Shown in pieces: positions 5,192-21,198 of a DNA stretch of 44,256 bases. Source of the stretch: an uncultured bacterium (lineage in GTDB: Bacteria > Gemmatimonadota > Gemmatimonadetes > Gemmatimonadales > Gemmatimonadaceae); contig CAXBQP010000023.1 of NCBI GenBank assembly GCA_963978095.1, positions 1 to 44,256 of the forward strand, read 5' to 3'. A program made the position numbers and the translations under genes. Under the pieces are notes generated by a model, which saw nothing but the letters and a program-made list of their open reading frames with translations, was not told the DNA's origin and searched no databases. Position 1 is the first letter of the stretch; the number at the start of each line of letters is the position of its first letter.

Positions 5192-5785
5192 GTGAAGGTC
5201 ATCGTCGGCCTCGGGAACCCGGGGCGCGAATATGCCGACACCCGGCACAACGTCGGCTGGTGGGTCATCGACCTGCTAGCCGACGTTTGGCGTTTCGACG
5301 GCTGGAAGAAGGACGGCCACGCCCTCGTGTCGAATGGCGTGGTCGGCAACATCAAGGTGCGGCTCGTCAAGCCGCAGACGTACATGAACCTGAGCGGCGA
5401 GGCGTTGCACCACTACCGGCGCCGCCCCTTCTGGTCGGCCAGCAGCGACCTGCTCGTCGTCGTCGACGAGGTCGCCCTGCCGGTGGGCCGTTTCCGCTTC
5501 CGCGCCAAAGGGTCCGCCGGCGGCCATAACGGGCTCAAGAGCATCGAACAGCACTTGCACACCCAGGAGTACGGACGCTTGCGCATCGGCGTCGCGCCGG
5601 CAGAGCCGGAGCGACAGATCGGCGTGCTGCGAGACTACGTGCTCGGCACGTTCGGAAAGATCGAGGCCGCGGAGATCCGGGCGCTGTTCCCGACGCTGGT
5701 CACCGCGATCGAGCTGTGGCTCCACGAGGGGATGGCGGTCACCATGAATCGATTCCCGGGGAAGGCGACGGACGGCTCGCCGTGA
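5192..5785 (+). CDS. pth: Peptidyl-tRNA hydrolase
   Basis: VGLGNPG, TRHNVG, KPQTYMNLSG and GGHNGLKSI motifs. Confidence 0.98.
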   Translation: MKVIVGLGNPGREYADTRHNVGWWVIDLLADVWRFDGWKKDGHALVSNGVVGNIKVRLVKPQTYMNLSGEALHHYRRRPFWSASSDLLVVVDEVALPVGRFRFRAKGSAGGHNGLKSIEQHLHTQEYGRLRIGVAPAEPERQIGVLRDYVLGTFGKIEAAEIRALFPTLVTAIELWLHEGMAVTMNRFPGKATDGSP

Positions 5786-7623
5786 GCGCGGCGCCGCTCC
5801 CGATGCGCATGCGCGGACCGGGCGGACTCTTGCGTGTTCCTCCGGAAGCCTCGTGGATGTCTCCGCTGCAGCGTGCGCACCGGAACGCGCTCGAGGCATC
5901 CAATGCCGCACGGGAGCTCACATTTCGCGCGGCGATCGATCGCTCGATGGCCGAGATCGCGGCCGATCCGTCCGCCGTCGCGCCGTATCGTCGTCTCGCG
6001 CGTCAGCTGCGGGACACCGGCCAAGCGGATGAGGCGCTCGACGTGCTCCGCCAGGGGATGCGCGATGCCGTGGTCGACGCTGCGTTCGTGCGTCGCGTCG
6101 CCGTCGATCTGCTCGATGCCGGCCATGGCGAGGAGGCGTTGGCGGTGCTCGACGCCACCGCGCCGCGCTTCCCGCTCGATGCCGAGCTGGTGCTGCTGCG
6201 TCGACTGGCCTTTCCGTCGGTCTTCCGCGATTCTGGGGAACCCGCGCGTTGGCGCGAGCGCTTGTCGCGCGGACTCGCCTCGCTGTCGCTGGACGACCCA
6301 GAGCTGGCCGCACTTCCGCACGCGGCGTTGATCGACGCGACGCTTCGCTTCAACCCCTACTACGTCGACTATCTCGGCGATGTGTCGCGTGATCTGCATG
6401 ACGCGTGGGGCGACTGGCTCGCGCGCCTGCTCTCGGCCTCCGCATCCACGGGCGCCGCACCAATGGAGGGTGCCACACCCGCGCCACGCGCCGCGGACAG
6501 CCGCATCCGGATCGGCATCGTCGGCGACACGTTGCGCGCGCACGTCGTCAGTGAGTTGTTCGTCGGCTGGGCGACTGCCCTGGACCGCACCCGGTTCGAC
6601 CTCCGCTGCTATGCGTTGCACACCGAAAGCGACCGGATGTCGCAGGCCTTCGAGGCCGCCTCCAGCCGCTTCGTGCAGTCGCCCGACACGGCCGTACTCC
6701 GCGCGGCGATCGTGGAGGATCAGCCGCGAGTGCTCCTGTACCTCGCCGTCGGGATGTCGTCGGCCGTCCTCGAACTCGCCGCGCAGCGCCTCGCCCCCGT
6801 GCAATGCGCGGCGTGGGGACACCCACGCACGACGGGACTGCCGACGATCGACTATTTCCTCGGCAGCGACGCGATGGAACCGCCCGGGGCCGCCGCGCAC
6901 TATCGCGAACGCCTCGTACGCCTCCCGGGGCTCGGTACGACGTTCCGGCTCCCGGATGCACTGCGGCCACTGCACATCAATCGGCGGGCGGACTTCGGGC
7001 TGTGCGATGATGACGTCGTGCTGCTGTGCGCGCAGAACGTCAGCAAGTTCCTGCCCTCCTTTGACACCGTGCTGATCGACATCGCACGACGCGTCCCGGC
7101 GAGCCGATTCGTGTTCGCCGTCGGTCATCAGCGCGGCGGCACCGTCCTGCGGCAACGCATCGCCCGGGCGTTCGAGCACGCGGGACTCGACTGGAGCCGT
7201 CACGAAGTCGCGCTCCCGGAACTCACCCCGCTCGAGTTCGACAACTTGGTGTGCGTCGCCGACGCCCTCCTCGACCCCGACGGCTGGTCGGCGGGCTACA
7301 CCGCCGTCAATGCGGTGGCCTTCGGCCTTCCCATCGTCTGTCGGCCAGGGGCGGTCGCCCGCACGCGCCAGAGCGCGGCGATCTTGACCCTGCTCGGCGA
7401 GACCCGAACGATCGCCGCGTCCGCATCCGCCTACGTCGAGATCGTCGAACGGATCGCGCACGACACCGCGTTCGTCGCCTCGGTGCGCGCGTCCCTGACC
7501 GCTCCTGAGAGGCGGGAACGTCTCGCGAGCGACCCCCGGGCGCAGGCGGCGCTGCAGGCGTTCCTCGAGTCCGCCGTCTCCCGCGTCACGGCCGATGCCG
7601 ACGCCTGCGCGCCCGCCGTTTAG
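5782..7623 (+). CDS. TPR + GT41 (O-GlcNAc transferase/SPINDLY/HMW1C-like) glycosyltransferase
   Basis: Short TPR-like N-terminus; RIRIGIVGDTLRAHVV, RLAPVQCAAWGHPRTTGLPTIDYFL, QNVSKF and ADALLDP...TAVNAVAFGLPIV motifs. The GTG at 5782 overlaps the pth stop; exact start uncertain. Confidence 0.85.
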   Translation: MSAAPLPMRMRGPGGLLRVPPEASWMSPLQRAHRNALEASNAARELTFRAAIDRSMAEIAADPSAVAPYRRLARQLRDTGQADEALDVLRQGMRDAVVDAAFVRRVAVDLLDAGHGEEALAVLDATAPRFPLDAELVLLRRLAFPSVFRDSGEPARWRERLSRGLASLSLDDPELAALPHAALIDATLRFNPYYVDYLGDVSRDLHDAWGDWLARLLSASASTGAAPMEGATPAPRAADSRIRIGIVGDTLRAHVVSELFVGWATALDRTRFDLRCYALHTESDRMSQAFEAASSRFVQSPDTAVLRAAIVEDQPRVLLYLAVGMSSAVLELAAQRLAPVQCAAWGHPRTTGLPTIDYFLGSDAMEPPGAAAHYRERLVRLPGLGTTFRLPDALRPLHINRRADFGLCDDDVVLLCAQNVSKFLPSFDTVLIDIARRVPASRFVFAVGHQRGGTVLRQRIARAFEHAGLDWSRHEVALPELTPLEFDNLVCVADALLDPDGWSAGYTAVNAVAFGLPIVCRPGAVARTRQSAAILTLLGETRTIAASASAYVEIVERIAHDTAFVASVRASLTAPERRERLASDPRAQAALQAFLESAVSRVTADADACAPAV

Positions 7624-7688: not shown

Positions 7689-8789
7689 ATGCTGAAGCTC
7701 GGCATCGTCGGTCTGCCGAATGTCGGCAAGTCCACGCTGTTCAACGCCCTCACGGCTGCCAAAGCCGATGCGGCGAACTATCCGTTCTGCACCGTCGAGC
7801 CGAACGTCGGCATGGTCAACGTCCCGGATCCGCGCCTCGACCGACTGGCCGAGATCGTGCATCCGGAGCGCACGCTGCCGGCGGCGGTCCAGTTCGTCGA
7901 CATCGCCGGTTTGGTGAAAGGCGCGGCGGAAGGCGAAGGACTCGGCAACAAGTTCCTGGCCAACATCCGCGAGTGCGACGCCATCGTGCATGTCGTCCGC
8001 TGCTTCGATGACCCGGATGTCACGCACGTGATGGGTGGCGTGGACCCGGTGCGCGACCGCGAAGTCATCGAGTTCGAACTGGCCCTCGCTGACCTCGGAG
8101 CGGTCGAGAAGCGTCTCGACAAATCGAAGCGCGCGGCGCGTACCGGTGACAAAGACGCCGCCAGTGAACTGCCGACGCTCGAAAAAGCGCACGCGGCACT
8201 CGCCGAGGGCAAAGCGCTGTGGCATGTCACGCTCTCCGCCGAGGACACGGCATTGTTGCGTCCGCTGCAGTTGCTCACGGTGAAGCCGGTGCTGTATGCC
8301 GCGAATGTCACCGACGCCGAACTGGCCGGGGACGAAGGCACATATCTGACCGCGCTGCGCGCCGCGATCGCGGGATCGAACGAACAGGCCGAGGTGGTGC
8401 CGTTCTCCGCGCGCATCGAGGCCGAGCTCGCGGAGCTCGCACCCGAGGACCGCGCCGACTTCCTGGCGTCCATCGGCCTGGAGTCTGCCGGGCTCGATCG
8501 ACTCATTCGCGCTGGCTACCACCTGCTCGGGCTGCAGACGTATTTCACGGCGGGGGAGAAGGAAGTGCGCGCGTGGACGATCCATCGCGGGGACACCGGT
8601 CCGAAGGCGGCCGGTGTGATCCATACTGACTTCGAGCGTGGATTCATCCGCGCGGAGACCGTGTCGTACGCCGACTTCGTGACGCACGATGGGTGGAAAG
8701 GCGCGCGCGAGAAGGGAGCGGTGCGGTCGGAGGGCAAGGAGTACGTCGTGCAGGACGGAGACGTCCTGCTGTTCCGCTTCAACGTCTGA
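7689..8789 (+). CDS. ychF: Redox-regulated ATPase YchF
   Basis: GIVGLPNVGKST, ANYPFCTVEPN, DIAGLVKGA, FLANIRE and a C-terminal TGS domain. Confidence 0.98.
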   Translation: MLKLGIVGLPNVGKSTLFNALTAAKADAANYPFCTVEPNVGMVNVPDPRLDRLAEIVHPERTLPAAVQFVDIAGLVKGAAEGEGLGNKFLANIRECDAIVHVVRCFDDPDVTHVMGGVDPVRDREVIEFELALADLGAVEKRLDKSKRAARTGDKDAASELPTLEKAHAALAEGKALWHVTLSAEDTALLRPLQLLTVKPVLYAANVTDAELAGDEGTYLTALRAAIAGSNEQAEVVPFSARIEAELAELAPEDRADFLASIGLESAGLDRLIRAGYHLLGLQTYFTAGEKEVRAWTIHRGDTGPKAAGVIHTDFERGFIRAETVSYADFVTHDGWKGAREKGAVRSEGKEYVVQDGDVLLFRFNV

Positions 8790-9987
8790 CCGGCCCACTC
8801 CCGGTGGGGCTCGACGCGAGCCCCACCGCGCGCAGGACGAGCCGGATCCAGCGCAGCGGCCAGTAGAGCGCGGTGGCACCCCGTGGCAGCCGGATCCATT
8901 CCGCCTCGCGCGGTGTCGGGACGGCCGCCGCGACCGCCAGCAGTCGCGCCTGATCCCACACCGAATCCTGCGTACGGAGCAGCCAGCGACGCGACCGTGG
9001 GATCAGCTCGTTGCTCGCAACGATCGCCCGCGCGAGTTCCGAGGCAAGGGAGCCCGCCGCGCGGTCTGCCTCGACCGCGTCCGCGATCGCGCGCGGCAGC
9101 GGTGTGTCCAGGAGCAGGTGCGCAAGGGCACAGCCGGTGAGCACCGCCCGGCACCCATGGACGTGGTCGCGCGACAACTCGAGTAGCCCGTTGGCGTCGA
9201 GCGACCGATCCCGCAGGAGCGCCCGCACCACGAGCAGCCATTCGAGCGTTCGCCAGTGGTGGCGCGCGCCATGCAGCAGCTGCAACAGCAGCTCGTGCTC
9301 GAGCGGTACGATCGGCAGCGCGACCCCCGCGATCGACAGGGGCTCTGCGGCCTCGAGCAGGTCACGCAGCGGCGGGTTCCACGGCAGCGTGCGATTGGAG
9401 AATCGCCAATGCAGGTCGACATCACGAGCGACGGGATCCTCGAGGTGCCCGAACGGCAGTTGTGCGTAGGCCGCATAGATGACGGTGGCACCGCGAAGCG
9501 TCGCATCCGCGCGAAGACCGTACCCCGCGCCGCGCAACACGTCGGTCGCACGCGCGAGTTGCGCGCGTTCCACCACGAGGTCGATGTCGATGCTCGCGCG
9601 CATCGTGCAGTCACCATACGCCCGCTGGGACAACAGCGGGCCCTTGTACACGAGCGCGCGCACGCCGGCATCGGTCAGACGTCGGTGCAACGCCGCCGTT
9701 TCGTGCACCGCGCGCCAGGCGCCAGCGGCGATCTCCAGCCGCTCGTGGAGGAGGGACTGCATCGTCGGTGCCGGCACCTGTACCCCGCTCCATGCCACGG
9801 CGTCCACGACGAACGGCAGCATCCGGTGTGCGCGTGCCACGTGCTGCAGGCGTGCCCAATCCCCGAGGGCGGCCGCCTCCCGCCGGACTCGCTCGTGCGT
9901 TGATGAGTCGCCCTGCTCACAACACGCCGCCGCGAGCAGGAGCCGCATCTCGGGCGTGGCCAGCTCGCGCAGGATTGGCTCAGTCAT
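8779..9987 (-). CDS. Nucleotidyltransferase family protein (NTP_transf_5-like), lasso cluster tailoring enzyme
   Basis: YKGPLLSQRAYGDCTMRASIDIDLVV (KG...DxD) and DVDLHW motifs. ATG 9987 overlaps the kinase stop. Confidence 0.85.
   Translation of the reverse strand: MTEPILRELATPEMRLLLAAACCEQGDSSTHERVRREAAALGDWARLQHVARAHRMLPFVVDAVAWSGVQVPAPTMQSLLHERLEIAAGAWRAVHETAALHRRLTDAGVRALVYKGPLLSQRAYGDCTMRASIDIDLVVERAQLARATDVLRGAGYGLRADATLRGATVIYAAYAQLPFGHLEDPVARDVDLHWRFSNRTLPWNPPLRDLLEAAEPLSIAGVALPIVPLEHELLLQLLHGARHHWRTLEWLLVVRALLRDRSLDANGLLELSRDHVHGCRAVLTGCALAHLLLDTPLPRAIADAVEADRAAGSLASELARAIVASNELIPRSRRWLLRTQDSVWDQARLLAVAAAVPTPREAEWIRLPRGATALYWPLRWIRLVLRAVGLASSPTGSGPVRR
8802..8828. terminator. Perfect 12-bp hairpin at the convergent ychF / nucleotidyltransferase junction
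   Basis: CGGTGGGGCTCG-acg-CGAGCCCCACCG; no clear U-tract. Confidence 0.5.
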
Positions 9988-11002
9988 CGAGCGCGCGCCG
10001 GATGGCGTGCACGGCATGTGGCAACTGCTCGTAGCCCGGCCCGAACTCGATCCGATATACCGGGAGTCGTTCCACCAGCCGGCTGAGTTGCGCGAGACTG
10101 CGAGCGGCTTGTGTTCCAGCGAGGAGATGGGCGCTCGACGTGTGGGGCAAGAGCATCAGCAGCGCTTCGGGCGCCGCCACCCGGACCACTTCCGGCGCGA
10201 CCGGATCGACGTGCGGCGTCACGCGAAAGAGCGCGCGGAGCGGTATCGGGTCCTGCACCGCGCCCTGGACCGCGCCCTCGACCGCGCCCTGGAACCGGCG
10301 CGACGCGGCGGGCATCGGCAGCATGTGCTTGTCCCAGGTCGGACCGACCAATCCGAACGTCGCCGGTTCCCAGTCCGGCGGTCGCCCCAACACGGCGCCT
10401 ACGCCGCGCACGGACTGCGAGGCAAGGCGCAGATGATCCCCGCCGCGCCACGTCACCACGCCGCCATCGCGCTCACCGATCGCCAGGACGTCATCGGTGC
10501 AGAGCGCAGCACCGGTGGCACAGCATGCGGCCGCGAGCGTGGATTTTCCCGCACCGGACGGCCCCACGAATCCGATGGCCCGCCCCTGAATGATCACTCC
10601 GCTCGCATGGAGCGCGAGTGTCCCCCGGAGCCGCAACACATATCCGAGGACGGATCCCGCGACATAGCCCACAACGTCGTCCACACTGTGGGCCTGCTCC
10701 CAGCGACACCAGACGTTGGCACCGTCAGCGTCAATGAAGAACTCCGCGCCGTCCGGCAGCTGAAACCGAGTCCCGGCCCCTCCCGCCACCCACCCGATCT
10801 CCAGCGCTGCCGGGAGCGCGGTATCGGCCGGCTCGCGCCGCAGGATCGTGGCAGGGTCGATCGGCGCGTCACGCCACACCGGCAGCGCGTGGAAGTGCAC
10901 ACGCACGGTCGCGTGCTCCAGCGGCGGAATCGGGAACAATCCGGGAATGGGGTGGTCGGACGCGAGGGTCACCCCACTCGCGAAGTACCAGTGACCGCGC
11001 AC
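9980..11002 (-). CDS. HPr-kinase-like P-loop kinase (lasso peptide kinase type)
   Basis: LHASGV, Walker A GPSGAGKST and TDDVLAI motifs; lies directly downstream of the precursor. Confidence 0.88.
   Translation of the reverse strand: MRGHWYFASGVTLASDHPIPGLFPIPPLEHATVRVHFHALPVWRDAPIDPATILRREPADTALPAALEIGWVAGGAGTRFQLPDGAEFFIDADGANVWCRWEQAHSVDDVVGYVAGSVLGYVLRLRGTLALHASGVIIQGRAIGFVGPSGAGKSTLAAACCATGAALCTDDVLAIGERDGGVVTWRGGDHLRLASQSVRGVGAVLGRPPDWEPATFGLVGPTWDKHMLPMPAASRRFQGAVEGAVQGAVQDPIPLRALFRVTPHVDPVAPEVVRVAAPEALLMLLPHTSSAHLLAGTQAARSLAQLSRLVERLPVYRIEFGPGYEQLPHAVHAIRRALDD
10256..10291 (-). repeat. 3 x 12-nt in-frame tandem repeat inside the kinase (QGAV-EGAV-QGAV)
   Basis: (c/g)accgcgccct(g/c) x3 on the + strand. 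Confidence 0.8.
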
Positions 11003-11033
11003 CGTCGTCGAACGCTGGCCGACGCCCGCCGCG

Positions 11034-11201
11034 TCAACCGGAGCGCGAACTCGTCTTGGTTGAAGAGTCCTGCGGCTTCGACGTTTTAGTGGAGAGCGTA
11101 CGCGTCAGATCCGTCAGCGAACCGAACTCGCGCAGCACCGGCGCGCTGTACCGAGCAAGGGTACGCTGCGACTCGGGGCTGCCACCAATCGACTGGGTCA
11201 T
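11034..11201 (-). CDS. Lasso peptide precursor (A), 55 aa; not in the ORF track
   Basis: Manual translation: MTQSIGGSPESQRTLARYSAPVLREFGSLTDLTRTLSTKTSKPQDSSTKTSSRSG*. Contains the lasso leader motif YxxPxLxxxGxxxxxT (YSAPVLREFGSLTDLT) and sits within a B1/B2/C cluster. Confidence 0.92.
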   Translation of the reverse strand: MTQSIGGSPESQRTLARYSAPVLREFGSLTDLTRTLSTKTSKPQDSSTKTSSRSG

Positions 11202-11274
11202 TGTGCGATTCTGCGTGACGGGAGGAATGCGACGCTTTCGGAATATAGTGCGTCCGCGCCCAGCGCGGGGACTA

Positions 11275-12450
11275 TCAGGTCACCGAGGATCCGGGGCCGA
11301 CGCGCGGCGACACATCGGCCAGCTCAAGATACGCGGCAATGCGGCGCATCGCCGAGCGGCGATCGGCGAACAGATCCGGCATCTCGGCGTAAATCGTGTC
11401 AATGATCCGAGCGACCGTGTGCTCCCCAGTCGCGAGCGACGCCAGACGAGCGAACAGTGCCGCGTCTCGTGTGATGACGGGCAGGTGCGCCGTGTCCCGG
11501 CGCAGCATCTCCTGGGGGAACGTCGTGAGTTGCTCGAGCGTGGAATGCGTCACTCGGGTTCCGATTCGGCCGGAACCCGCGGGCGGCGTCACGTCCACCG
11601 ACCACCGCACCACGTACTGATCGTCCAGCGCCCTGAACCGCAGCGAGGCCGATACGTCGTCACCCGTACGCACGTCGATCGGTGTGCGCAACGGCAGCAG
11701 CTGACGCCCCCAAGGGCGGACGGGCACCCGCGGGCTGTTGCTGATCCATTCCCCGTTCGCCAGCAGGGCGTCGAACCACACCGCGATGCCATCGAGCACG
11801 CCGTCTCGCTCCACCGAAAACTGGAGATCGGCGTGCGCATCCGTCGGAGTCTCGCGCTGGTGCTCGAGGGTCCACCACGCCGTTTCCGCCGCGAGCAAGT
11901 TCTCCGGTCGGAGCTTGAGTGCTCCACGGGGCTGGACCGTGGTCCTCCGCAACACCGGTGCACAATCGAGGCCGAAGATTGGCGTGGACGCATCGGACAC
12001 CCTCGTTCCGCCGCAGTCCACTGGGGCGGCGTACAGCACGTCACGGACGAACAACTCTCGCACGCCATCGACGCACAGACGCCGGCGCGCGTCGTTCATG
12101 GAGGCGATCGCCGTACCGACGAGGGTGTGGGCGCCGCGCAGATCACCGACGAGGACGGTCGCTTTCCGTGGGAGGGTGACGGCTTCGACGGTCTCGGTGA
12201 TCCACGTGATGCGGTCGCCCACACCGTGCCGGGCGGCCAACTCCGGGCCGATCGCCAGCAATGGACTCGGTTCGATCGCATACACGTGGTCCGCGCCCGA
12301 CTGTGCGGCAATGACCGCGAAGTGGCCGGCGCCCGCGCCCACCTCGAGCACCACGTCGTCGGCCGACACCATGTGCCGCAACGCACGGGCCATGGGTGCC
12401 CCCCGGCCCGGATCCGCGAACATGGACTGGAGATGTTCGAGACTATACAT
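11275..12450 (-). CDS. Class I SAM-dependent methyltransferase, PRMT-like, with C-terminal helical extension
   Basis: MFAD.GR...ARAL N-terminal helix, motif I VLEVGAGAG, post-I VYAIE, VGDLRG, and a beta-barrel segment DGIAVWFDALL...ISNSP...RPWGRQLLPL resembling the PRMT THW-loop region. ATG 12450 is 5 nt after the cyclase stop. Confidence 0.82.
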   Translation of the reverse strand: MYSLEHLQSMFADPGRGAPMARALRHMVSADDVVLEVGAGAGHFAVIAAQSGADHVYAIEPSPLLAIGPELAARHGVGDRITWITETVEAVTLPRKATVLVGDLRGAHTLVGTAIASMNDARRRLCVDGVRELFVRDVLYAAPVDCGGTRVSDASTPIFGLDCAPVLRRTTVQPRGALKLRPENLLAAETAWWTLEHQRETPTDAHADLQFSVERDGVLDGIAVWFDALLANGEWISNSPRVPVRPWGRQLLPLRTPIDVRTGDDVSASLRFRALDDQYVVRWSVDVTPPAGSGRIGTRVTHSTLEQLTTFPQEMLRRDTAHLPVITRDAALFARLASLATGEHTVARIIDTIYAEMPDLFADRRSAMRRIAAYLELADVSPRVGPGSSVT

Positions 12451-12455
12451 GCCGC

Positions 12456-14255
12456 TTACGGTATCCCTGCCCGCAACCAGTTGTCGAGTGCCAGGACACG
12501 CCACGCGTGATCGATCGCGTCCGTCGCGGTACCCGCCAGCGCCGTATTCACCTGCGCCGGGTCCACCCAGCGGCTGACTCGGTCGCTGACCGTTGGCGGA
12601 TGCGCCCCCTGCTCCGCACGCCAGGTCGCCACGATGGACGACGACGGCGTCCGGACCGGTGTCTTGGGACGACGCAACACCTCGTCCGGCAGCGTGCCGC
12701 GAAAGGCGCGACGCAGGAGTTCCTTGCGCTGCAACCACGGTGTCGTGGGAAGCGACATCACCAATCCCAGCAGCCGCAGGTCCATGAGCGGCCACGCCAC
12801 CTCGTGCCGCAGCGCCCCAAGGACGCCGAAATCAGGCTGCGTCACCATCTGGAAAAACGGATGCGTGACCCGAGCCACGGTATCCGGACGGACCAACGCC
12901 GTCATGTCATGGCATGGCAGCGGAACGGCGCGTGCGGCGGCGTCCCGCCACCGAGCCGCCAGCCACGCTGGAGCCGGCGGCTCGACCTCGGGTGGGGACC
13001 ACCACTCGCGCAGCCGCAGCCCCGTGTGCGGCTTGCGTCCACTCTGGACGGCGAACCGCGCGAGACGCGCGATGGTGCGCACGGTTCCGAACCGTCGACG
13101 CTCCTCGGCGAACGACGAGGGGAGCAGCAGCCCGTCGCCATCCTCCCCATTCAGCTGCACGCGCCCATGCGCGGCCATCGCCGCCACGATGCGCATCTCA
13201 CGTCCGTTCGAGACGGAGTTGGTGGGCTCGGGCAGTCGCTCGCGGGGGATCTCGTCGACCCGCATCCCCGAGTACCCAAAGGTCGTCACCACATGTCGTG
13301 TCCCCAGCCGCTGCGCGACACGGCGCGCCAACGGCGGTTCCGGGTCGTCCATCGCGTCCGGCCCGGCGATCGTCACCGAGGTCACGTCGACCCCCGGACG
13401 CACGCGGCGAGCGGTGGCCGTGAGACTCGGCGAATCGAGCCCGCCGGACAACGGGATCACTACCTCCGGCAGCCGCATGCGATCGGCGACCGCATCGCCA
13501 AGCACTGCATGGAACTCGGCGATCACCTCGCGGTCGGACCTCCGTGACGGCGCCGGCGACGGCGGCTGCCACCAGACGCGGCGCCGAATCGAGGGGCCGC
13601 CGAGGGCAATGCTCGACCCGGACGCGAGCCGATGGACATCCGCGAACACCGTCCGCGTGACGTCCGTGGCGTACCCGACGGCCAAGGTGGAGGCGATCCA
13701 CGCATCGTCGAGCCCGTCCGACACGTCGGGATGCGCACGCACCGCGTCGATGGACGACGATACCACGATTCCGCCGCGGATCGACGCCCAGTACACCGGG
13801 CGGATCCCCAGGGCGTCGCGCGCCACCAGTCCGCGGCCGGCGCCGGGATCCCACAGGACGAACGCATAGTCCCCCAACACGCGGGTGAGCATCTCCTCCC
13901 CCCACGCCTCCCAGGCCGCCAGCAGCAACCCCTCGTCGTCGCCGATCGCCGGCGGACGCACCCCTGCGACGCGCAGCGCCTCTCGCAGTTCGCGTTGCGC
14001 ATCCACGCGGACATTGCCGGTCAACAACACGCCGCGTGCCGATCGATGCGGACCGCACCGCGCGCCCTCGCGCGTGGTCATCAGCGCATGCACCATGGCC
14101 ACCCCACCACGGGGCGCGTCGCTGTCCCTCGGGGCGACCGTGACCGCGTTGAGGTCGTCGTGGGGGGCCCGCGCGAGTTCCGCGCGCAGGCGGGCGAGGA
14201 CGGCGGGAGCGAGCGGCGGACCGTCGACGGTGATGACCGCCGCGAAGGCGCTCAC
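12456..14255 (-). CDS. Lasso cyclase (asparagine-synthetase-like, C protein)
   Basis: GDYAFVLWD, ARDALGIRPVYW, LSGGLDS and KELLRRAFRGTLPDEVLRRPK motifs. It lacks the N-terminal catalytic Cys of glutamine-hydrolysing AsnB and is adjacent to B1/B2. Confidence 0.92.
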   Translation of the reverse strand: MSAFAAVITVDGPPLAPAVLARLRAELARAPHDDLNAVTVAPRDSDAPRGGVAMVHALMTTREGARCGPHRSARGVLLTGNVRVDAQRELREALRVAGVRPPAIGDDEGLLLAAWEAWGEEMLTRVLGDYAFVLWDPGAGRGLVARDALGIRPVYWASIRGGIVVSSSIDAVRAHPDVSDGLDDAWIASTLAVGYATDVTRTVFADVHRLASGSSIALGGPSIRRRVWWQPPSPAPSRRSDREVIAEFHAVLGDAVADRMRLPEVVIPLSGGLDSPSLTATARRVRPGVDVTSVTIAGPDAMDDPEPPLARRVAQRLGTRHVVTTFGYSGMRVDEIPRERLPEPTNSVSNGREMRIVAAMAAHGRVQLNGEDGDGLLLPSSFAEERRRFGTVRTIARLARFAVQSGRKPHTGLRLREWWSPPEVEPPAPAWLAARWRDAAARAVPLPCHDMTALVRPDTVARVTHPFFQMVTQPDFGVLGALRHEVAWPLMDLRLLGLVMSLPTTPWLQRKELLRRAFRGTLPDEVLRRPKTPVRTPSSSIVATWRAEQGAHPPTVSDRVSRWVDPAQVNTALAGTATDAIDHAWRVLALDNWLRAGIP

Positions 14256-14698
14256 GGTGCGCTGGAGTAGGCCGCCAGCGCGGCGAACCGGGCGAACTCG
14301 GCGTCACCGACGACCACCAGCCCATCGCTCTCCACCCACGCATGGGCGTCGATGGGTCGCCCGTCGCCGGCGGCGGGGGCCACGCCGATCCGGAGTACGG
14401 CCGCCACCCCTTGCGCGCGGAGCAACCATTCCGCCGCCAGCGCTTGGGGGAGGCAGGGGGCGCTCGGGAAGGTCCGGGCGGCCCGGCTCAGCGCTCGGCG
14501 CACCGCCCAGGCGTGCATCGGCGACGCCACCGCCGCCGAGCGGTGGCGTGCTGCGAGGCGTGCGTCCATCCACGCACGGATCCTCGGAAAGGGGACGAGC
14601 ACGAGTGCCATGCGGAAGACGACCAGCCACCAGACGGCGCGCCAGGACAGGGTGCGCTCCGCCGCGCTGAGCGCCGCGAGGCTACGAAGTCGGCTCAC
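14252..14698 (-). CDS. Lasso leader peptidase (B2, transglutaminase-like)
   Basis: PCLPQALA, LRIGV and AHAWVE (Cys-His catalytic motifs); GTG start at 14698. Confidence 0.93.
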   Translation of the reverse strand: MSRLRSLAALSAAERTLSWRAVWWLVVFRMALVLVPFPRIRAWMDARLAARHRSAAVASPMHAWAVRRALSRAARTFPSAPCLPQALAAEWLLRAQGVAAVLRIGVAPAAGDGRPIDAHAWVESDGLVVVGDAEFARFAALAAYSSAP

Positions 14699-14981
14699 CC
14701 ACAAGGTCGAGCAGGCCTTTGTCCGCGAGTTCGGCGCTGATCCGGAGGACATCGCGTTCCGCCGTGTCTCGGTCGACGTCGAAGGTCGCGGTGACATGGT
14801 CCACGACCGCAGCCAGCGCGACCGGCTGTTGCATCCGTCCCCAAATGGTGGCACCCACGGCATTGAGGCCGAAGTAGATGCCATCCGTCATGTGCAGGAT
14901 GACCGCTTCGCCGGAGAGTGTCGTGGAGACTTGATGCGTCGAGGCGACCACGCGCGACGAGAGAGCCAAAGGCTGGGACAT
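14682..14981 (-). CDS. PqqD-family RiPP recognition element (lasso B1)
   Basis: 99 aa; LSGEAVILHMTDGIYFGLNAVGATIW and FDVDRDTAERDV...L...GLL. Confidence 0.95.
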   Translation of the reverse strand: MSQPLALSSRVVASTHQVSTTLSGEAVILHMTDGIYFGLNAVGATIWGRMQQPVALAAVVDHVTATFDVDRDTAERDVLRISAELADKGLLDLVGEPTS

Positions 14982-14987
14982 GGGTGC

Positions 14988-15017
14988 AACATAGTGACCG
15001 CCGAGTCCGGGCGGCAA
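14988..15017 (-). promoter_or_regulatory. Putative promoter of the lasso operon (probably leaderless)
   Basis: Minus strand TTGCCG-N18-TATGTT-N6-ATG. Confidence 0.55.
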
Positions 15018-15048
15018 TCGCGGGACACGGGTACGCGCTTTGACCAGG

Positions 15049-15077: not shown

Positions 15078-15196
15078 GAGAGGCTGTTGATGTTCAACCA
15101 TCACGATCCAGTGCCCTCCCGGGGCCTTCGGATCACTCTCCCGCCGCGCCGGCAACCCGCGACGGGCGTTCCAGACCAAAGGGAGGATTGCCCACA

Positions 15197-15559
15197 GTGA
15201 CTCGTGCCTACGAGGCGGTGTACATCTTCGATTCTGCGCTCGAAGACGCCGCCATCAACGAAAAGATGACGAAGCACCACGCGCTCCTCGGAGCGACGGG
15301 TGAGATCGCCCTGAACCATTGGGGGCGTCGTCAGCTCGCGTACAAGATCGGCTCCAAGGAGTCGGGGTATTACATCGTCGCGAAGTTCGAGTGCGACCCC
15401 ACGGCCCTCCCCGAGTTCGAGCGATCGCTCAAGCTCGACGAGAGCGTGATCCGTTGGCTCATCTCGGTCGACGAGCACGAGCTCGGCGCCCCGCCGATGA
15501 CCGAAGAACAGCTCGCCGCCCGCGCCCGCGGCGACGATGACGACGACGACGAGGATTAA
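15197..15559 (+). CDS. rpsF: 30S ribosomal protein S6
   Basis: YEAVYIF, WGRRQLAYKI and LKLDESVIR motifs. GTG 15197 is better spaced from the GGGAGG SD than TTG 15188. Confidence 0.97.
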   Translation: MTRAYEAVYIFDSALEDAAINEKMTKHHALLGATGEIALNHWGRRQLAYKIGSKESGYYIVAKFECDPTALPEFERSLKLDESVIRWLISVDEHELGAPPMTEEQLAARARGDDDDDDED

Positions 15560-17889: not shown

Positions 17890-20800
17890 ATGTCTCGTCG
17901 CTGGATCGCCGTCGTCTCCCGCCCGTTCGCGCGGGCCGTCCTGCTGGTGGCATGCCTCGTGTCGACCGCGCTCGCACCGGATGTCGTCCGCGCACAAGGC
18001 TACTTCGGGCAGAACCAAGTCCAGTTCCAAGTGTTCCAGTGGCGCGTCTACAAGACCGAGCATTTCGACGTCCACTACTACCAGGGCATGGCGGAGGGCG
18101 CCAAGATCGCCGCCCGCATGGCGGAGCGGTCGTACGCCAGACTGTCGCGCCTCATGGGGTACACGTTCAAGGAACGGAAGCCGATCGTCGTCTTTGCCTC
18201 CCGCGGGGATTTCGCGCAGAACAACGTCACGGGGGATCTGGGCGAAGGCACCGGCGGCGTGACCGACGCGATGCATCAGCGCAACATGTTCTTCTTCGGC
18301 AGCGATCTCGCCGAAGTCGAGCATGTCATGGCGCACGAGATGGTGCACCAGTTCCAGTACGACATCATGTTCAAGGGGCGCACGGGCGGCGCGCAGCAGA
18401 TGATCGAGGGCGACAACCTGCCGCTCTGGTTCGCGGAAGGGATGGCGGAGTACCTGTCGATCGGCCCGGACCACAAGGCGACCGACGCGATCATGCGCGA
18501 CGCGGCCCTCAACGGCAATCTGCCCACGATCAAGCAGTTGAAGGATGAACCCAACCGGTTCTTCCCGTATCGCTACGGAGAATCGTTCTGGCGTTTCATC
18601 GGCCAGCGATGGGGAGACGAGATCGTCGGCGAGATCCTGCAGGCCACGGCGACGATCGGAGTGGAGCGTGGCTTCAAGCGCCATACCGGCTTCGAGCTCG
18701 ACGAACTCGGCGACGAGTGGAAGGAAACGCAACAGACGAACTATCTGCCCGCGGTCGCAACGCTCGAGCGTCCACGCAAGAACGCGCAGGCGCTGCTCAA
18801 CGAGAAGAAGACCGGCGGGATCATCCCCGTATATGTGGCACCGGCACTCTCGAGCGACGGCAAGCAGATCGCGTACATCTCCACCGGGTCGCTGTTGCGG
18901 GCGGAGGTGTTCCTCGACCTGTACCTCGCCGACGCCACGACCGGCAAGCGCACCAAGCGGCTCACGAACAGCGTGCTGAATCCCGAAACGGAGGAACTGC
19001 GCTACGTCTATTCGCAGAGCGCCTTCTCCCCCGACGGGCGCACGCTGGCCTATACCGGCATGCGCAAGGGCAAGGATGTCCTCTTTTTGCTCGACCTGCG
19101 GTCACGCGAGGTGATCCGCCGGCTCGACACCGACCTCGATGCGATGGTGGGCCCGACCTTCTCGCCGGACGGGAAGCGGATCGCGTTCAGTGGCAGCAAG
19201 GGCGGATCGACCAACATCTACGTCATCGATGCGGACGGGCGGAACCTCAAGCAACTGACGAACGGATGGTATGCCGGACTGATGCCCTCGTGGTCGCCGG
19301 ACGGCCGCAAGATCGCATTCGTCAGCGACCGCGGACCGAAGACGAACCTCGAGTTGCTCCGCTTCGGAAAGTGGGAGATCAACCTCCTCGATCTGGCGAC
19401 GGGTGCGATCGAGACCATCCCCGGTCAGGGCGGCAAGAATCTCAACCCCGCCTGGGCGCCGGACGGGAAATCGCTGGCATTCATCAGTGACCGCACCGGG
19501 ATCGCGCAGATCTTCCTGTACGATTTCGAGGCGAAGGAGCACTACCAGCTGACGCGCTACATCGGCGGCGTGCTCTCCCTGACGGAAAACAGTCCGGCCA
19601 TCACCTGGGCGCGCCAGGCGGACAAGTTGGCGTTCGTGTACTACGACAACAACGACTACACGGTGTGGTCGATCTCGAACCCGCGCCAACTCAAGAAGGA
19701 GCCGTACCGCGAACCGACGGCCACCGCCGTGGTCGCGAGCGCGGAACGTCCCCCGGTGACCGCCGAGGATTCGGCGACGGCACGTCGTGCGCAGGCGGCG
19801 ATGGCGGTGTCGGACATTGCCAAGGCCTCGAAGGATTCCGCGCTGGCCGTGCCACCCAACCCGCGTCGAGTGTCCATCTATCGCGGGGTGGGTGGGATGC
19901 GCGCGTCGGGGGAACTCCCCGCGCCGGGAAGCCCCGGCGCGACCTCGCCGGTGTCGGTGGCGGCGCTCATGGACAGTTCCTCGCTCGCCCTGCCGAGTGA
20001 CGCCAGCATCAAGGACGAGCCGTACAAGGCGGAGCTCCGCGCGGAAGCGGTGCAACGGCCGCAAGTCGGATATGCCCAGGACAACTACCAGCGGGGCGTC
20101 TACGGCGGCACCGCCATCCTCTTTGCCGACCTGCTGGGCAATCGCCAGCTGCTTGCCGGCCTCGCCATCAATGGACGGGTGGAGGAGGCGCAGGTCGCGC
20201 TCAACTACACGAACTTCTCCAATCGGCTGAACTTCTCGACCGGATTCAATCAGAGTCCATTCTACCTGTTCACCGGGTACTCGACGGATCAGGTCGGGAC
20301 CGGTCAGTACTATCAGCGTCAGTCGCTGATGCGCTACATCGTCCGGACGGCGAACTACAATGCGATCTACCCCATCAATCGCTTCACGCGATTCGAGATC
20401 GGCGCCGCCTACACGAACATCGACCGCAGCGCGATGTATCTGTCCCAGGGCATCGACTTCAACTCCGGGTACAGCACTGGGTTCTACGTCGACAGCGTGC
20501 GGGGGTTGGGGTCGTTGAACTTCGTGAACCCGGTGGCCGCGTTCGTCTCGGATAATGCGCTGCAGAGCTACACGGGGCCCATCTACGGGCACCGGTACCG
20601 CGTCGAAGTCTCCCCGTGGGTCGGCGTGCGGGACACGAAGGGTTTCGTGAACGTGCTCGCGGACCTGCGGCGCTACGATGCGATCGCGTTCAGCTTCCTG
20701 ACGCTGGCCACCCGCCTCTATGCGGACATCTCGCAGGGACCGGGCGAGAGCCTCATCCAGAAATACATCGGCGTCCCGCAGTACATCCGGGGCTACGACC

Positions 20801-21198
20801 GGGAGAACTACCTGTCGTCGAATTGCGGATCCACGAACGCCAATGACTGCAACGCCCTGATGCAACTGGTGGGCAGTCATACGTTGGTGATGAACGCGGA
20901 ACTGCGATTCCCGCTGATCCGGCGCTTCGAGCTTGGCGTGTTGCCGGTCTCCTTGCCGCCGCTGGACGGTCTGTTCTTCTACGACGCCGGCATGGCGTGG
21001 AGCTCCGGGCAGACGCTCACGGCCGCCAAGCCCGACGTGTACGATTTCAACAAGCAGCGGTTCCTGCTGCGGAGCTACGGCTACGGTCTGCGGTTGAACC
21101 TGTTCAACTTCGCGATCATTCGGTGGGATTACTCGATTCCGCTGGACTCGTTCAACCACAAGGGCTATTGGTGGTGGTCGATCGGTCAGTCGTTCTGA
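17890..21198 (+). CDS. Outer-membrane protein: zincin (MA-clan) peptidase domain + PD40/TolB-like propeller + Omp85/BamA-like barrel
   Basis: Signal peptide; HEMVH...WFAEGMAEY; repeated P(A/S)(W/F)SPDGxxIAF; YIRGY, NAELRFPL and a C-terminal Phe. Confidence 0.82.
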   Translation: MSRRWIAVVSRPFARAVLLVACLVSTALAPDVVRAQGYFGQNQVQFQVFQWRVYKTEHFDVHYYQGMAEGAKIAARMAERSYARLSRLMGYTFKERKPIVVFASRGDFAQNNVTGDLGEGTGGVTDAMHQRNMFFFGSDLAEVEHVMAHEMVHQFQYDIMFKGRTGGAQQMIEGDNLPLWFAEGMAEYLSIGPDHKATDAIMRDAALNGNLPTIKQLKDEPNRFFPYRYGESFWRFIGQRWGDEIVGEILQATATIGVERGFKRHTGFELDELGDEWKETQQTNYLPAVATLERPRKNAQALLNEKKTGGIIPVYVAPALSSDGKQIAYISTGSLLRAEVFLDLYLADATTGKRTKRLTNSVLNPETEELRYVYSQSAFSPDGRTLAYTGMRKGKDVLFLLDLRSREVIRRLDTDLDAMVGPTFSPDGKRIAFSGSKGGSTNIYVIDADGRNLKQLTNGWYAGLMPSWSPDGRKIAFVSDRGPKTNLELLRFGKWEINLLDLATGAIETIPGQGGKNLNPAWAPDGKSLAFISDRTGIAQIFLYDFEAKEHYQLTRYIGGVLSLTENSPAITWARQADKLAFVYYDNNDYTVWSISNPRQLKKEPYREPTATAVVASAERPPVTAEDSATARRAQAAMAVSDIAKASKDSALAVPPNPRRVSIYRGVGGMRASGELPAPGSPGATSPVSVAALMDSSSLALPSDASIKDEPYKAELRAEAVQRPQVGYAQDNYQRGVYGGTAILFADLLGNRQLLAGLAINGRVEEAQVALNYTNFSNRLNFSTGFNQSPFYLFTGYSTDQVGTGQYYQRQSLMRYIVRTANYNAIYPINRFTRFEIGAAYTNIDRSAMYLSQGIDFNSGYSTGFYVDSVRGLGSLNFVNPVAAFVSDNALQSYTGPIYGHRYRVEVSPWVGVRDTKGFVNVLADLRRYDAIAFSFLTLATRLYADISQGPGESLIQKYIGVPQYIRGYDRENYLSSNCGSTNANDCNALMQLVGSHTLVMNAELRFPLIRRFELGVLPVSLPPLDGLFFYDAGMAWSSGQTLTAAKPDVYDFNKQRFLLRSYGYGLRLNLFNFAIIRWDYSIPLDSFNHKGYWWWSIGQSF

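Follow-up and report, generated by a model that had tools for sequence, protein, structure and literature searches.

What does a lasso peptide operon make when it encodes, besides the proteins that process the leader and close the ring, a peptide kinase, a nucleotidyltransferase and a methyltransferase (MT) with the predicted fold of the protein arginine methyltransferases (PRMTs)? The question is raised by a 44,256-nt stretch of DNA from an uncultured member of the Gemmatimonadaceae (GenBank assembly GCA_963978095.1, contig CAXBQP010000023.1), called the window here in its full length. Seven of its minus-strand genes very probably form an intact lasso cluster with separate B1 and B2 proteins (split B), of the kinase/nucleotidyltransferase type known from paeninodin, pseudomycoidin and Bsf, with a PRMT-fold MT in addition and a pathway along the lines proposed below. 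Observations in favor of the lasso reading include domain and motif calls for the seven genes, a precursor family of 47 members, co-occurrence of the genes across phyla, and homologues at the same chromosomal site in related genomes. The genes are as follows.

14682..14981, minus strand: B1, 99 aa, PqqD-like recognition element (RRE) for peptides made by the ribosome and modified after translation (RiPPs)
14252..14698, minus strand: B2, 148 aa, transglutaminase-like leader peptidase
12456..14255, minus strand: C, 599 aa, asparagine-synthetase-like lasso cyclase
11275..12450, minus strand: MT, 391 aa, predicted PRMT-fold methyltransferase using S-adenosylmethionine (SAM), with a C-terminal helical, RRE-like tail at about residues 320-380
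11034..11201, minus strand: A, 55-aa precursor, with the leader at 11094-11201 and the probable core STKTSKPQDSSTKTSSRSG at 11037-11093
9980..11002, minus strand: K, 340 aa, HprK-like peptide kinase
8779..9987, minus strand: N, 402 aa, a nucleotidyltransferase of PF14907 annotated as PsmN-like

The original prediction, made from the letters of the window, had given the order B1-B2-C-MT-A-K-N and the end points of the operon, and both are right: position 8779 is the last base of the N stop codon and 14981 is the start of B1. Overlaps join B1 to B2 (17 nt), B2 to C (4 nt) and K to N (8 nt), and the gaps measure 5 nt between C and MT, 73 nt between MT and A and 31 nt between A and K. The open reading frames (ORFs) of the cluster align almost full length with homologues in related genomes, and because of this near end-to-end alignment they are not chance ORFs of GC-rich DNA. 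A scan of the minus strand for sigma-70 promoters and terminators gave nothing useful, and the RNA 3' of the precursor gene folds no better than its shuffles (z −1.0).

Domain calls throughout are Pfam and NCBIfam profile matches. B1 matches PqqD (PF05402; 61.6 bits, cut-off 23.4) and also the lasso model NF033536 lasso_PqqD_Bac, at an E value of 8e-15 that stays under this model's cut-off. B2 matches NF033537 lasso_biosyn_B2 (76.2 bits, cut-off 33) and Transglut_core3 (PF13471; 71.5 bits); it has a single Cys (Cys82), and its His119 lies within a DAHAW motif. C combines Asn_synthase (PF00733; 93.9 bits) with GATase_7, carries the PP-loop SGGLDS at residue 270, and reaches an E value of 2.4e-42 against the lasso cyclase model NF033535, under the strict cut-off. 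The precursor A scores 19.5 bits against the lasso leader model NF033521 (cut-off 19), with the leader motif YxxPxLx3G at residues 18-27. When the window's genome (91% complete) was searched for further precursor or B2 genes, only the present locus came up.

The two tailoring genes downstream of A fit the kinase/nucleotidyltransferase type. N is a clear member of NTP_transf_5 (PF14907; 134.9 bits, cut-off 31.2), a family to which PsmN, the nucleotidyltransferase of pseudomycoidin, presumably belongs as well, and it has the motif G116...D134-I-D136. K contains H132...G..G.GKS...DD171, and H...G..G.GKS...DD is the motif reported for lasso kinases (PMC10368454).

The precursor family consists of small ORFs with the leader motif inside related clusters, 47 of which were aligned. 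P21, G27 and T33 are invariant among them and Y18 is nearly so. A [KR][ST] pair falls within the last six residues in 46 of the 47 and is followed by 0-3 residues; the window precursor ends in ...SRSG. Read from the list, the basic residue of the pair is Lys in most members and Arg in about a third. The typical core, seen in most of them, is x-[VIL]-G-x5-D-G-G...[KR][ST]x, and 35 of the 47 have no Phe, Trp or Tyr past the leader. The window core, read as TL-STKTSKPQDSSTKTSSRSG, is rich in Ser, Thr and Lys and has neither DGG nor an aromatic residue. Ser and Thr make up 57% of it, against a mean of 21% in the family, and the earlier description of the core as atypical is therefore correct. Among the relatives whose loci were examined, this core type is common only to G020. 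The window has one precursor gene; the islands of L093 (G004), L110 (G025), L100 (G012) and L109 (G023) have two or three.

The MT is the gene that sets the locus apart, and its fold and its active site have to be considered separately. Its nearest relatives are bacterial proteins of about 380 aa with 30-38% identity and Pfam PrmA and PRMT_C domains; the Pfam call for the window protein itself is a class I methyltransferase with a weak PRMT_C match. A profile of 32 family sequences matched the solved structures of PRMT6, PRMT8, PRMT1 and PRMT2 at E values of about 1e-48; one of the 32 members has a weak PCMT match, and the best family matches are PRMTs. The AlphaFold2 model (mean predicted local distance difference test score, 84.6) retrieved PRMT6 and PRMT2 with Foldseek at E values of about 1e-24 and TM scores of 0.61-0.77. 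As modeled, the protein is a type I PRMT fold, a Rossmann domain plus a beta-barrel, with the SAM-binding motif GxGxG. It shares with the eukaryotic type I enzymes PRMT6, PRMT1, PRMT2 and CARM1 the whole-domain fold, the GxGxG motif and the N-terminal helix motif, and differs from them in a D...G double-E loop, in RPW (x-x-Y in the family), in an additional three-helix C-terminal domain, and in its bacterial RiPP context.

The differences in the two loops fall on residues that matter for arginine. In PRMTs the two Glu of the double-E loop hold the guanidinium group, and the second of them and the His of the THW loop are required for arginine methylation. When the MT is mapped onto CARM1, the double-E positions are D103 and G112, so that the second Glu is gone; across the family Asp is invariant at the first of these positions, and the second shows no conservation. 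The THW loop reads R-P-W, with His replaced by Pro and Trp kept, and the family consensus is x-x-Y. Because the second Glu and the His are replaced, arginine methylation by this enzyme is not supported by its sequence, and the label "PRMT-like" in the original prediction is right for the fold, by profile and by Foldseek, and is not borne out if it is taken to mean an arginine methyltransferase.

If the MT nevertheless acted as a true arginine methyltransferase on the single core Arg (in SRSG), the product would be an arginine-methylated lasso peptide. The strength of the fold matches, the retained Trp of the THW loop and, in 46 of the 47 precursors, a basic residue ahead of the conserved Ser/Thr would suit such an activity. 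Besides the altered active site, it has against it that this basic residue is mostly Lys and that [KR][ST] is retained in the MT-less clusters L101, G046 and G050, and we regard it as unlikely. The reading we prefer is that the MT methylates some other acceptor, and a comparison of cores with and without MT, made in search of that acceptor, singled out no candidate; the Lys-rich cores of G044, which has the MT, and of G046 and G050, which do not, are similar. One lead from the same comparison is that cores appear to have fewer aromatic residues where the MT is present: nine MT-less precursors, counted by hand and from interrelated genomes, have 4, 6, 4, 2, 2, 2, 0, 0 and 0, and the mean over the 47 family precursors is 0.38, where 46 are MT-linked and the MT-less L101 contributes four.

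The MT ends in a tail of about 70 aa that follows the beta-barrel and is modeled as three helices with no sheet, the sheet being the part of a PqqD-like RRE that pairs with the leader. Aligned with hhalign against the B1 alignment it gave P 4.7e-4 over 26 columns at a probability of 33% (B2 control, P 0.34), and Pfam PqqD is weakly touched by 3 of the 32 family members. The match to PqqD in the Protein Data Bank (3g2b) is weak (E 0.18). In Foldseek the highest-ranking entries for the tail are TbiB1, a lasso B1 protein, with its leader (5v1u; probability 0.92, root-mean-square deviation 1.4, 48 columns) and PqqD, at weak E values of 1.2-1.7 and with no match at 0.001. The tail is possibly a truncated RRE.

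Whether the MT belongs to the pathway can be asked of its relatives across phyla. A scan with one genome per species gave 363 relatives of MT, and the neighborhoods of the best 80 of these 363 loci were examined by tblastn with the window proteins, within 7 kb. K lies near MT in 71 of the 80 loci, and in 41 of the 46 that have at least 6 kb on both sides. For the other genes the corresponding fractions are 64/80 and 41/46 (C), 53/80 and 32/46 (N), 44/80 and 30/46 (B1) and 35/80 and 25/46 (B2); the last two counts are probably too low because B1 and B2 are small and divergent. In 4 of the 80 loci none of K, C, N, B1 and B2 is nearby, and one of these is a contig of 2.9 kb. The hosts are labeled Cyanobacteria, Acidobacteriota, Gemmatimonadota, Chloroflexota, Proteobacteria, Verrucomicrobiota, Planctomycetota and Bacteroidota. 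Outside the window the commonest order is B1-B2-C-A-K-MT-ABC exporter-N (ABC, ATP-binding cassette), with the exporter verified in L001 and L032; the window's own order C-MT-A-K-N recurs in L005, labeled Gemmatimonadota. Kinase, nucleotidyltransferase and MT together are the standard kit of a large family that crosses phyla. The original prediction had proposed an undescribed, multiply modified subclass, and we likewise found no characterized example; these counts make the combination a widespread one, not a local oddity.

An MT that does not act on the peptide would either methylate something in the cell, such as a ribosomal protein in the manner of PrmA, and so protect the producer, or be an unrelated passenger. 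Pfam PrmA is matched by 31 of the 32 MT family members, the island adjoins ribosomal protein genes, and the clusters of this genus are without an ABC exporter, which often also has an immunity function. Yet the gene sits inside the operon between C and A, 5 nt from its neighbor, and across phyla the kinase accompanies it in 71 of the 80 loci, usually as its immediate neighbor and including loci that do have an ABC exporter; its tail, moreover, weakly resembles the helical part of the leader-binding domains of lasso B1 and PqqD. We consider both forms of this explanation very improbable, and go on with an MT that tailors the peptide.

The position of the cluster in the chromosome gives a further view of its history. 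Four features define the surroundings:

8788..15033, no strand: variable island, delimited by blastn against the empty site of the relative G026
7689-8789, plus strand: ychF, flank of the cluster
15188-15559, plus strand: rpsF, flank of the cluster
5716..7623, plus strand: GT41-like glycosyltransferase (PF13844), probable accessory tailoring gene, true start probably downstream of 5785

The cluster is flanked by the housekeeping genes prs, L25, ychF, S6, S18, a gene for a DUF2232 protein, and L9; the identities of ychF, rpsF, rpsR and rplI are borne out. N and ychF converge, and since their stop regions overlap by 11 nt (8779-8789) a terminator has no space between them. The GC content of the island (0.65-0.75) is not distinct from that of its flanks.

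The cluster adjoins ychF and/or rpsF in 14 of 18 same-genus loci, with both flanks visible in 11 and only ychF in 3; the remaining loci are three short contigs and G018, which has a different, aromatic-rich type elsewhere in its genome. Full-length homologues of every cluster gene occur at the same site within the genus. Between the window and G020, amino-acid identity in the flanks is 96% for ychF, 96% for rpsF, 99% for rpsR and 95% for rplI, against 48% for N, 45% for K, 67% for A, 47% for MT, 47% for C, 58% for B2 and 65% for B1. G020 also holds a second fragment of a PF14907-like nucleotidyltransferase, 43% identical to N, at L091 (G020:C47) 3-746 on the minus strand, upstream of prs, away from the island and at the edge of the G020 stretch that was analyzed.

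In G026, whose ychF is 97% identical, the site is empty: blastn homology to L099 ends at window position 8787 and restarts at 15034, and about 56 bp replace the 6.2-kb island (L099, G026:C11, about 6158-6215), with about 211 bp from ychF to rpsF. In G010 the same site holds an island without MT, B1-B2-C-A-K-N (L101, G010:C76, 4560-9517), whose core RVDFSGHLDGGWFIFPLRTG contains four aromatics, more than any other of the set. Strong MT matches (E 2.4e-29 or better) were found in 20 of 61 related genomes, and 10 more have weak ones only (1e-4 to 1e-6). K is also present in 19 of the 20, the exception being 76% complete, and occurs without MT in 12 of the 61; these tallies include the unpublished G006 (among the 20) and G036 (among the 12). 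The original prediction had the operon inserted antiparallel between ychF and rpsF, and antiparallel it is; on these comparisons the site is better read as a long-standing hypervariable island that is shared by the genus, is lost or absent in one relative and changes faster than its housekeeping flanks. One chromosomal site thereby offers natural comparison cases, with empty, MT-less and, in two genomes, glycosyltransferase-accompanied versions.

That glycosyltransferase lies just upstream of ychF and matches PF13844 (60.5 bits, cut-off 25), the GT41 family. It is missing from G026 together with the lasso island, as a clean indel (window 5793-7615), and its identity to the G020 counterpart is 56%, against 95-99% for the flanks. 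At E 1e-20 it occurs in 2 of the 61 related genomes only, the window's own and G020, the two with the Ser/Thr-rich core. Among 128 loci, GT41 relatives were found only in G020 and in L010, from a metagenome-assembled genome labeled Lysobacterales. In L010 (1225-5568, minus strand) a GT41 protein of 752 aa follows the ABC exporter, divergent from B1-B2-C-A-K-MT; exporter and GT41 gene are likely an operon, and a nucleotidyltransferase was not found in the L010 locus. From metagenomes, 80 loci encoding GT41 relatives were taken, 39 of them at least 10 kb long; lasso genes are present in 12 of the 80 (MT, K and C in 6 each, N in 3), and in L166 a GT41 relative begins 47 nt after the methyltransferase. 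The cores of GT41-bearing clusters are not all Ser/Thr-rich, so the tie between GT41 and that core type comes from two related genomes only. Judging from these associations, the gene is probably a fourth tailoring gene of the system. The original prediction had counted three tailoring enzymes in a complete cluster, and all seven genes are indeed there, with the probable fourth lying beyond the interval it gave.

By analogy with pseudomycoidin, N and the GT41-like protein might divide labor in the window. PsmN has been proposed to be either a new kind of glycosyltransferase or a supplier of substrate for a glycosyltransferase of the host, and one cyanobacterial cluster of the kinase type encodes a recognizable glycosyltransferase (PMC6993621). 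HprK-like kinases phosphorylate linear lasso precursors with the assistance of B1 (PMC10368454), and the acceptor is the C-terminal Ser in paeninodin and pseudomycoidin and, with help from B1, Ser3 in BsfA (PMC9266682, PMC8498205, PMC10368454).

The pathway that we propose would begin with B1 binding the YxxPxLx3G leader of the 55-aa precursor. K would phosphorylate a Ser or Thr of the core on the linear peptide, the likely site being [KR]-[ST] near the C-terminus, here Arg-Ser-Gly, and N, perhaps with the GT41-like enzyme, would extend the phosphate with a sugar or a nucleotide. The MT would move the methyl group of SAM onto an acceptor, probably something other than a canonical arginine. B2 would then take off the leader, and C would form the isopeptide ring, probably from Ser1 to Asp9 of STKTSKPQDSSTKTSSRSG.

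Since the cores are nearly without plug residues, the added groups may act as a lock, and the authors of the psm study suggested that bulky groups on the phosphate may be a lasso lock (PMC6993621). Taken further, the steric lasso lock of this family would be built post-translationally and not be encoded in bulky side chains, with K, N, the GT41-like enzyme and a PRMT-fold MT that has left arginine behind assembling a methylated phospho-glycosyl group on [KR]-[ST], in an island that diversifies fast. We offer this extension tentatively and think it doubtful.

Several observations weigh against the reading of the locus as a tailored lasso cluster. K has only weak matches to HprK-related profiles (E 2e-7 to 3e-3), and A has Gly at its C-terminus in place of the Ser on which paeninodin-type kinases act. 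No ABC exporter gene (D) lies between ychF and rpsF, and such a gene seems to accompany most of the family's loci in other phyla (it was verified for two and is also present in L010). Our search found no observed product for any member of the MT-bearing family. The GT41-like gene is separated from the cluster by ychF, and what links them is co-occurrence in two close genomes plus associations elsewhere. Bulky residues of the kind that usually form the plug are missing from the core, so that a threaded product is not assured. Lastly, the rule that places a Thr at −2 would make Thr the first core residue and put the Asp at position 11, beyond the known ring range of 7-9.

A cut after Leu36, two residues later than that rule, would give Ser1 and Asp9, and in a reading of the sequences the later cut also yields, in most members of the family, a ring of 7-9 residues that starts with Gly, Ala or Ser. 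We would place the leader/core boundary of A there. At the end of the leader, 11094-11105 in the window, the conserved Thr of most family precursors precedes the first plausible ring residue (Gly, Ala or Ser) by four positions instead of two. By these alignments, cleavage occurs at an unusual site, unless the rings exceed all known ones in size.

These difficulties bear on another view, that the product is a branched-cyclic or linear modified peptide and not a threaded lasso, or that the cluster is silent or decaying. A core without aromatics and with few bulky residues would be expected of it; pseudomycoidin made without K and N was reported to be unthreaded (PMC6993621), the bsf cluster gave no product from five hosts (PMC10368454), and the island has been lost in one close relative. 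Against this view stand seven intact ORFs that keep their catalytic motifs and align near full length with homologues, and an island retained at its site in at least 14 same-genus loci. We judge this outcome quite improbable, somewhat more so than methylation of the core Arg, and keep to the intact lasso cluster.

Among known systems the closest is the psm cluster of Bacillus pseudomycoides DSM 12442, which like the window has a precursor, split B1/B2, a cyclase, an HprK-like kinase and an "uncharacterized NTP transferase" (PMC6993621). Its kinase adds phosphate to the precursor, hexose on that phosphate requires the N gene (psmN) (PMC6993621), and the catalytic Asp pair D134/D136 of PsmN has its counterpart in D134-x-D136 of the window N. 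As described in the available part of that paper, psm lacks a methyltransferase, encodes an ABC exporter, uses a C-terminal Ser as acceptor and comes from a Bacillota host, whereas the window has the PRMT-fold enzyme, the GT41-like neighbor and a C-terminal Gly, and no exporter in the island. The bsf cluster of Bradymonas sediminis FA350 shares A, B1, B2, C, K and N with the window and is likewise bordered by ribosomal protein genes (PMC10368454). Its kinase works on the linear precursor, with B1 accelerating, and has H...G..G.GKS...DD in common with the window K (PMC10368454); both systems also lack a conserved Thr at the usual −2 position, if the window core starts at Ser37. The bsf system differs in that its leader has Ile(−2), BsfK targets core Ser3, an ABC exporter is present, the available text describes no methyltransferase, and the mature product was not obtained (PMC10368454). 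In the paeninodin type (PadeK, ThcoK, SyanK) an HprK-like kinase also tailors the precursor before the leader is removed, as we propose here, whereas the acceptor is a C-terminal Ser, the cores have aromatic plug residues, and a PRMT-fold enzyme is not part of the systems as these sources present them (PMC9266682, PMC8498205).

SAM-dependent tailoring of lasso peptides is known from StspM and LasF, which form a C-terminal methyl ester, and from homologues of protein isoaspartyl methyltransferase (PIMT), which lead to an aspartimide in cellulonodin-2 and lihuanodin (PMC9266682). The MT resembles them in its proposed role and differs in family, StspM/LasF being mitomycin-7-O-methyltransferase-like and the others PIMT (PMC9266682). 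As far as their available parts go, reviews of how lasso peptides are modified name no methyltransferases beyond the C-terminal O-methyltransferase and the PIMT type (PMC9266682, PMC8498205), and the word "methyltransferase" is absent from the portion of the supplementary text of PMC10368454 available to us. No paper that places a PRMT-fold or PrmA-like enzyme in a lasso pathway came up in a full-text search; the co-occurrence may already be on record in subscription journals. Our literature search also found no characterized cluster that combines kinase, nucleotidyltransferase and PRMT-like enzyme, in agreement with the original prediction. Particular to the window are the Ser/Thr/Lys-rich core, the hypervariable ychF-rpsF island with its empty and MT-less variants, and the GT41-like neighbor.

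As scaffolds, lasso peptides are compact and very stable; they have antibiotic and receptor-binding activities, and new tailoring enzymes widen their range. If the proposed role of the MT is true, a PRMT-fold enzyme whose arginine-binding residues have been replaced would carry out a new peptide-modifying activity in a bacterial RiPP pathway. The MT family is present in hundreds of species from at least eight phyla, yet no publication on it turned up in our search. With plug residues almost absent from these cores, the idea put forward for pseudomycoidin, that added groups hold the thread, becomes directly testable.

Downstream of rplI the window also encodes, at 17890-21198 on the plus strand, a 1102-aa protein with PD40/WD40-like beta-propeller repeats, which appears unrelated to the cluster.

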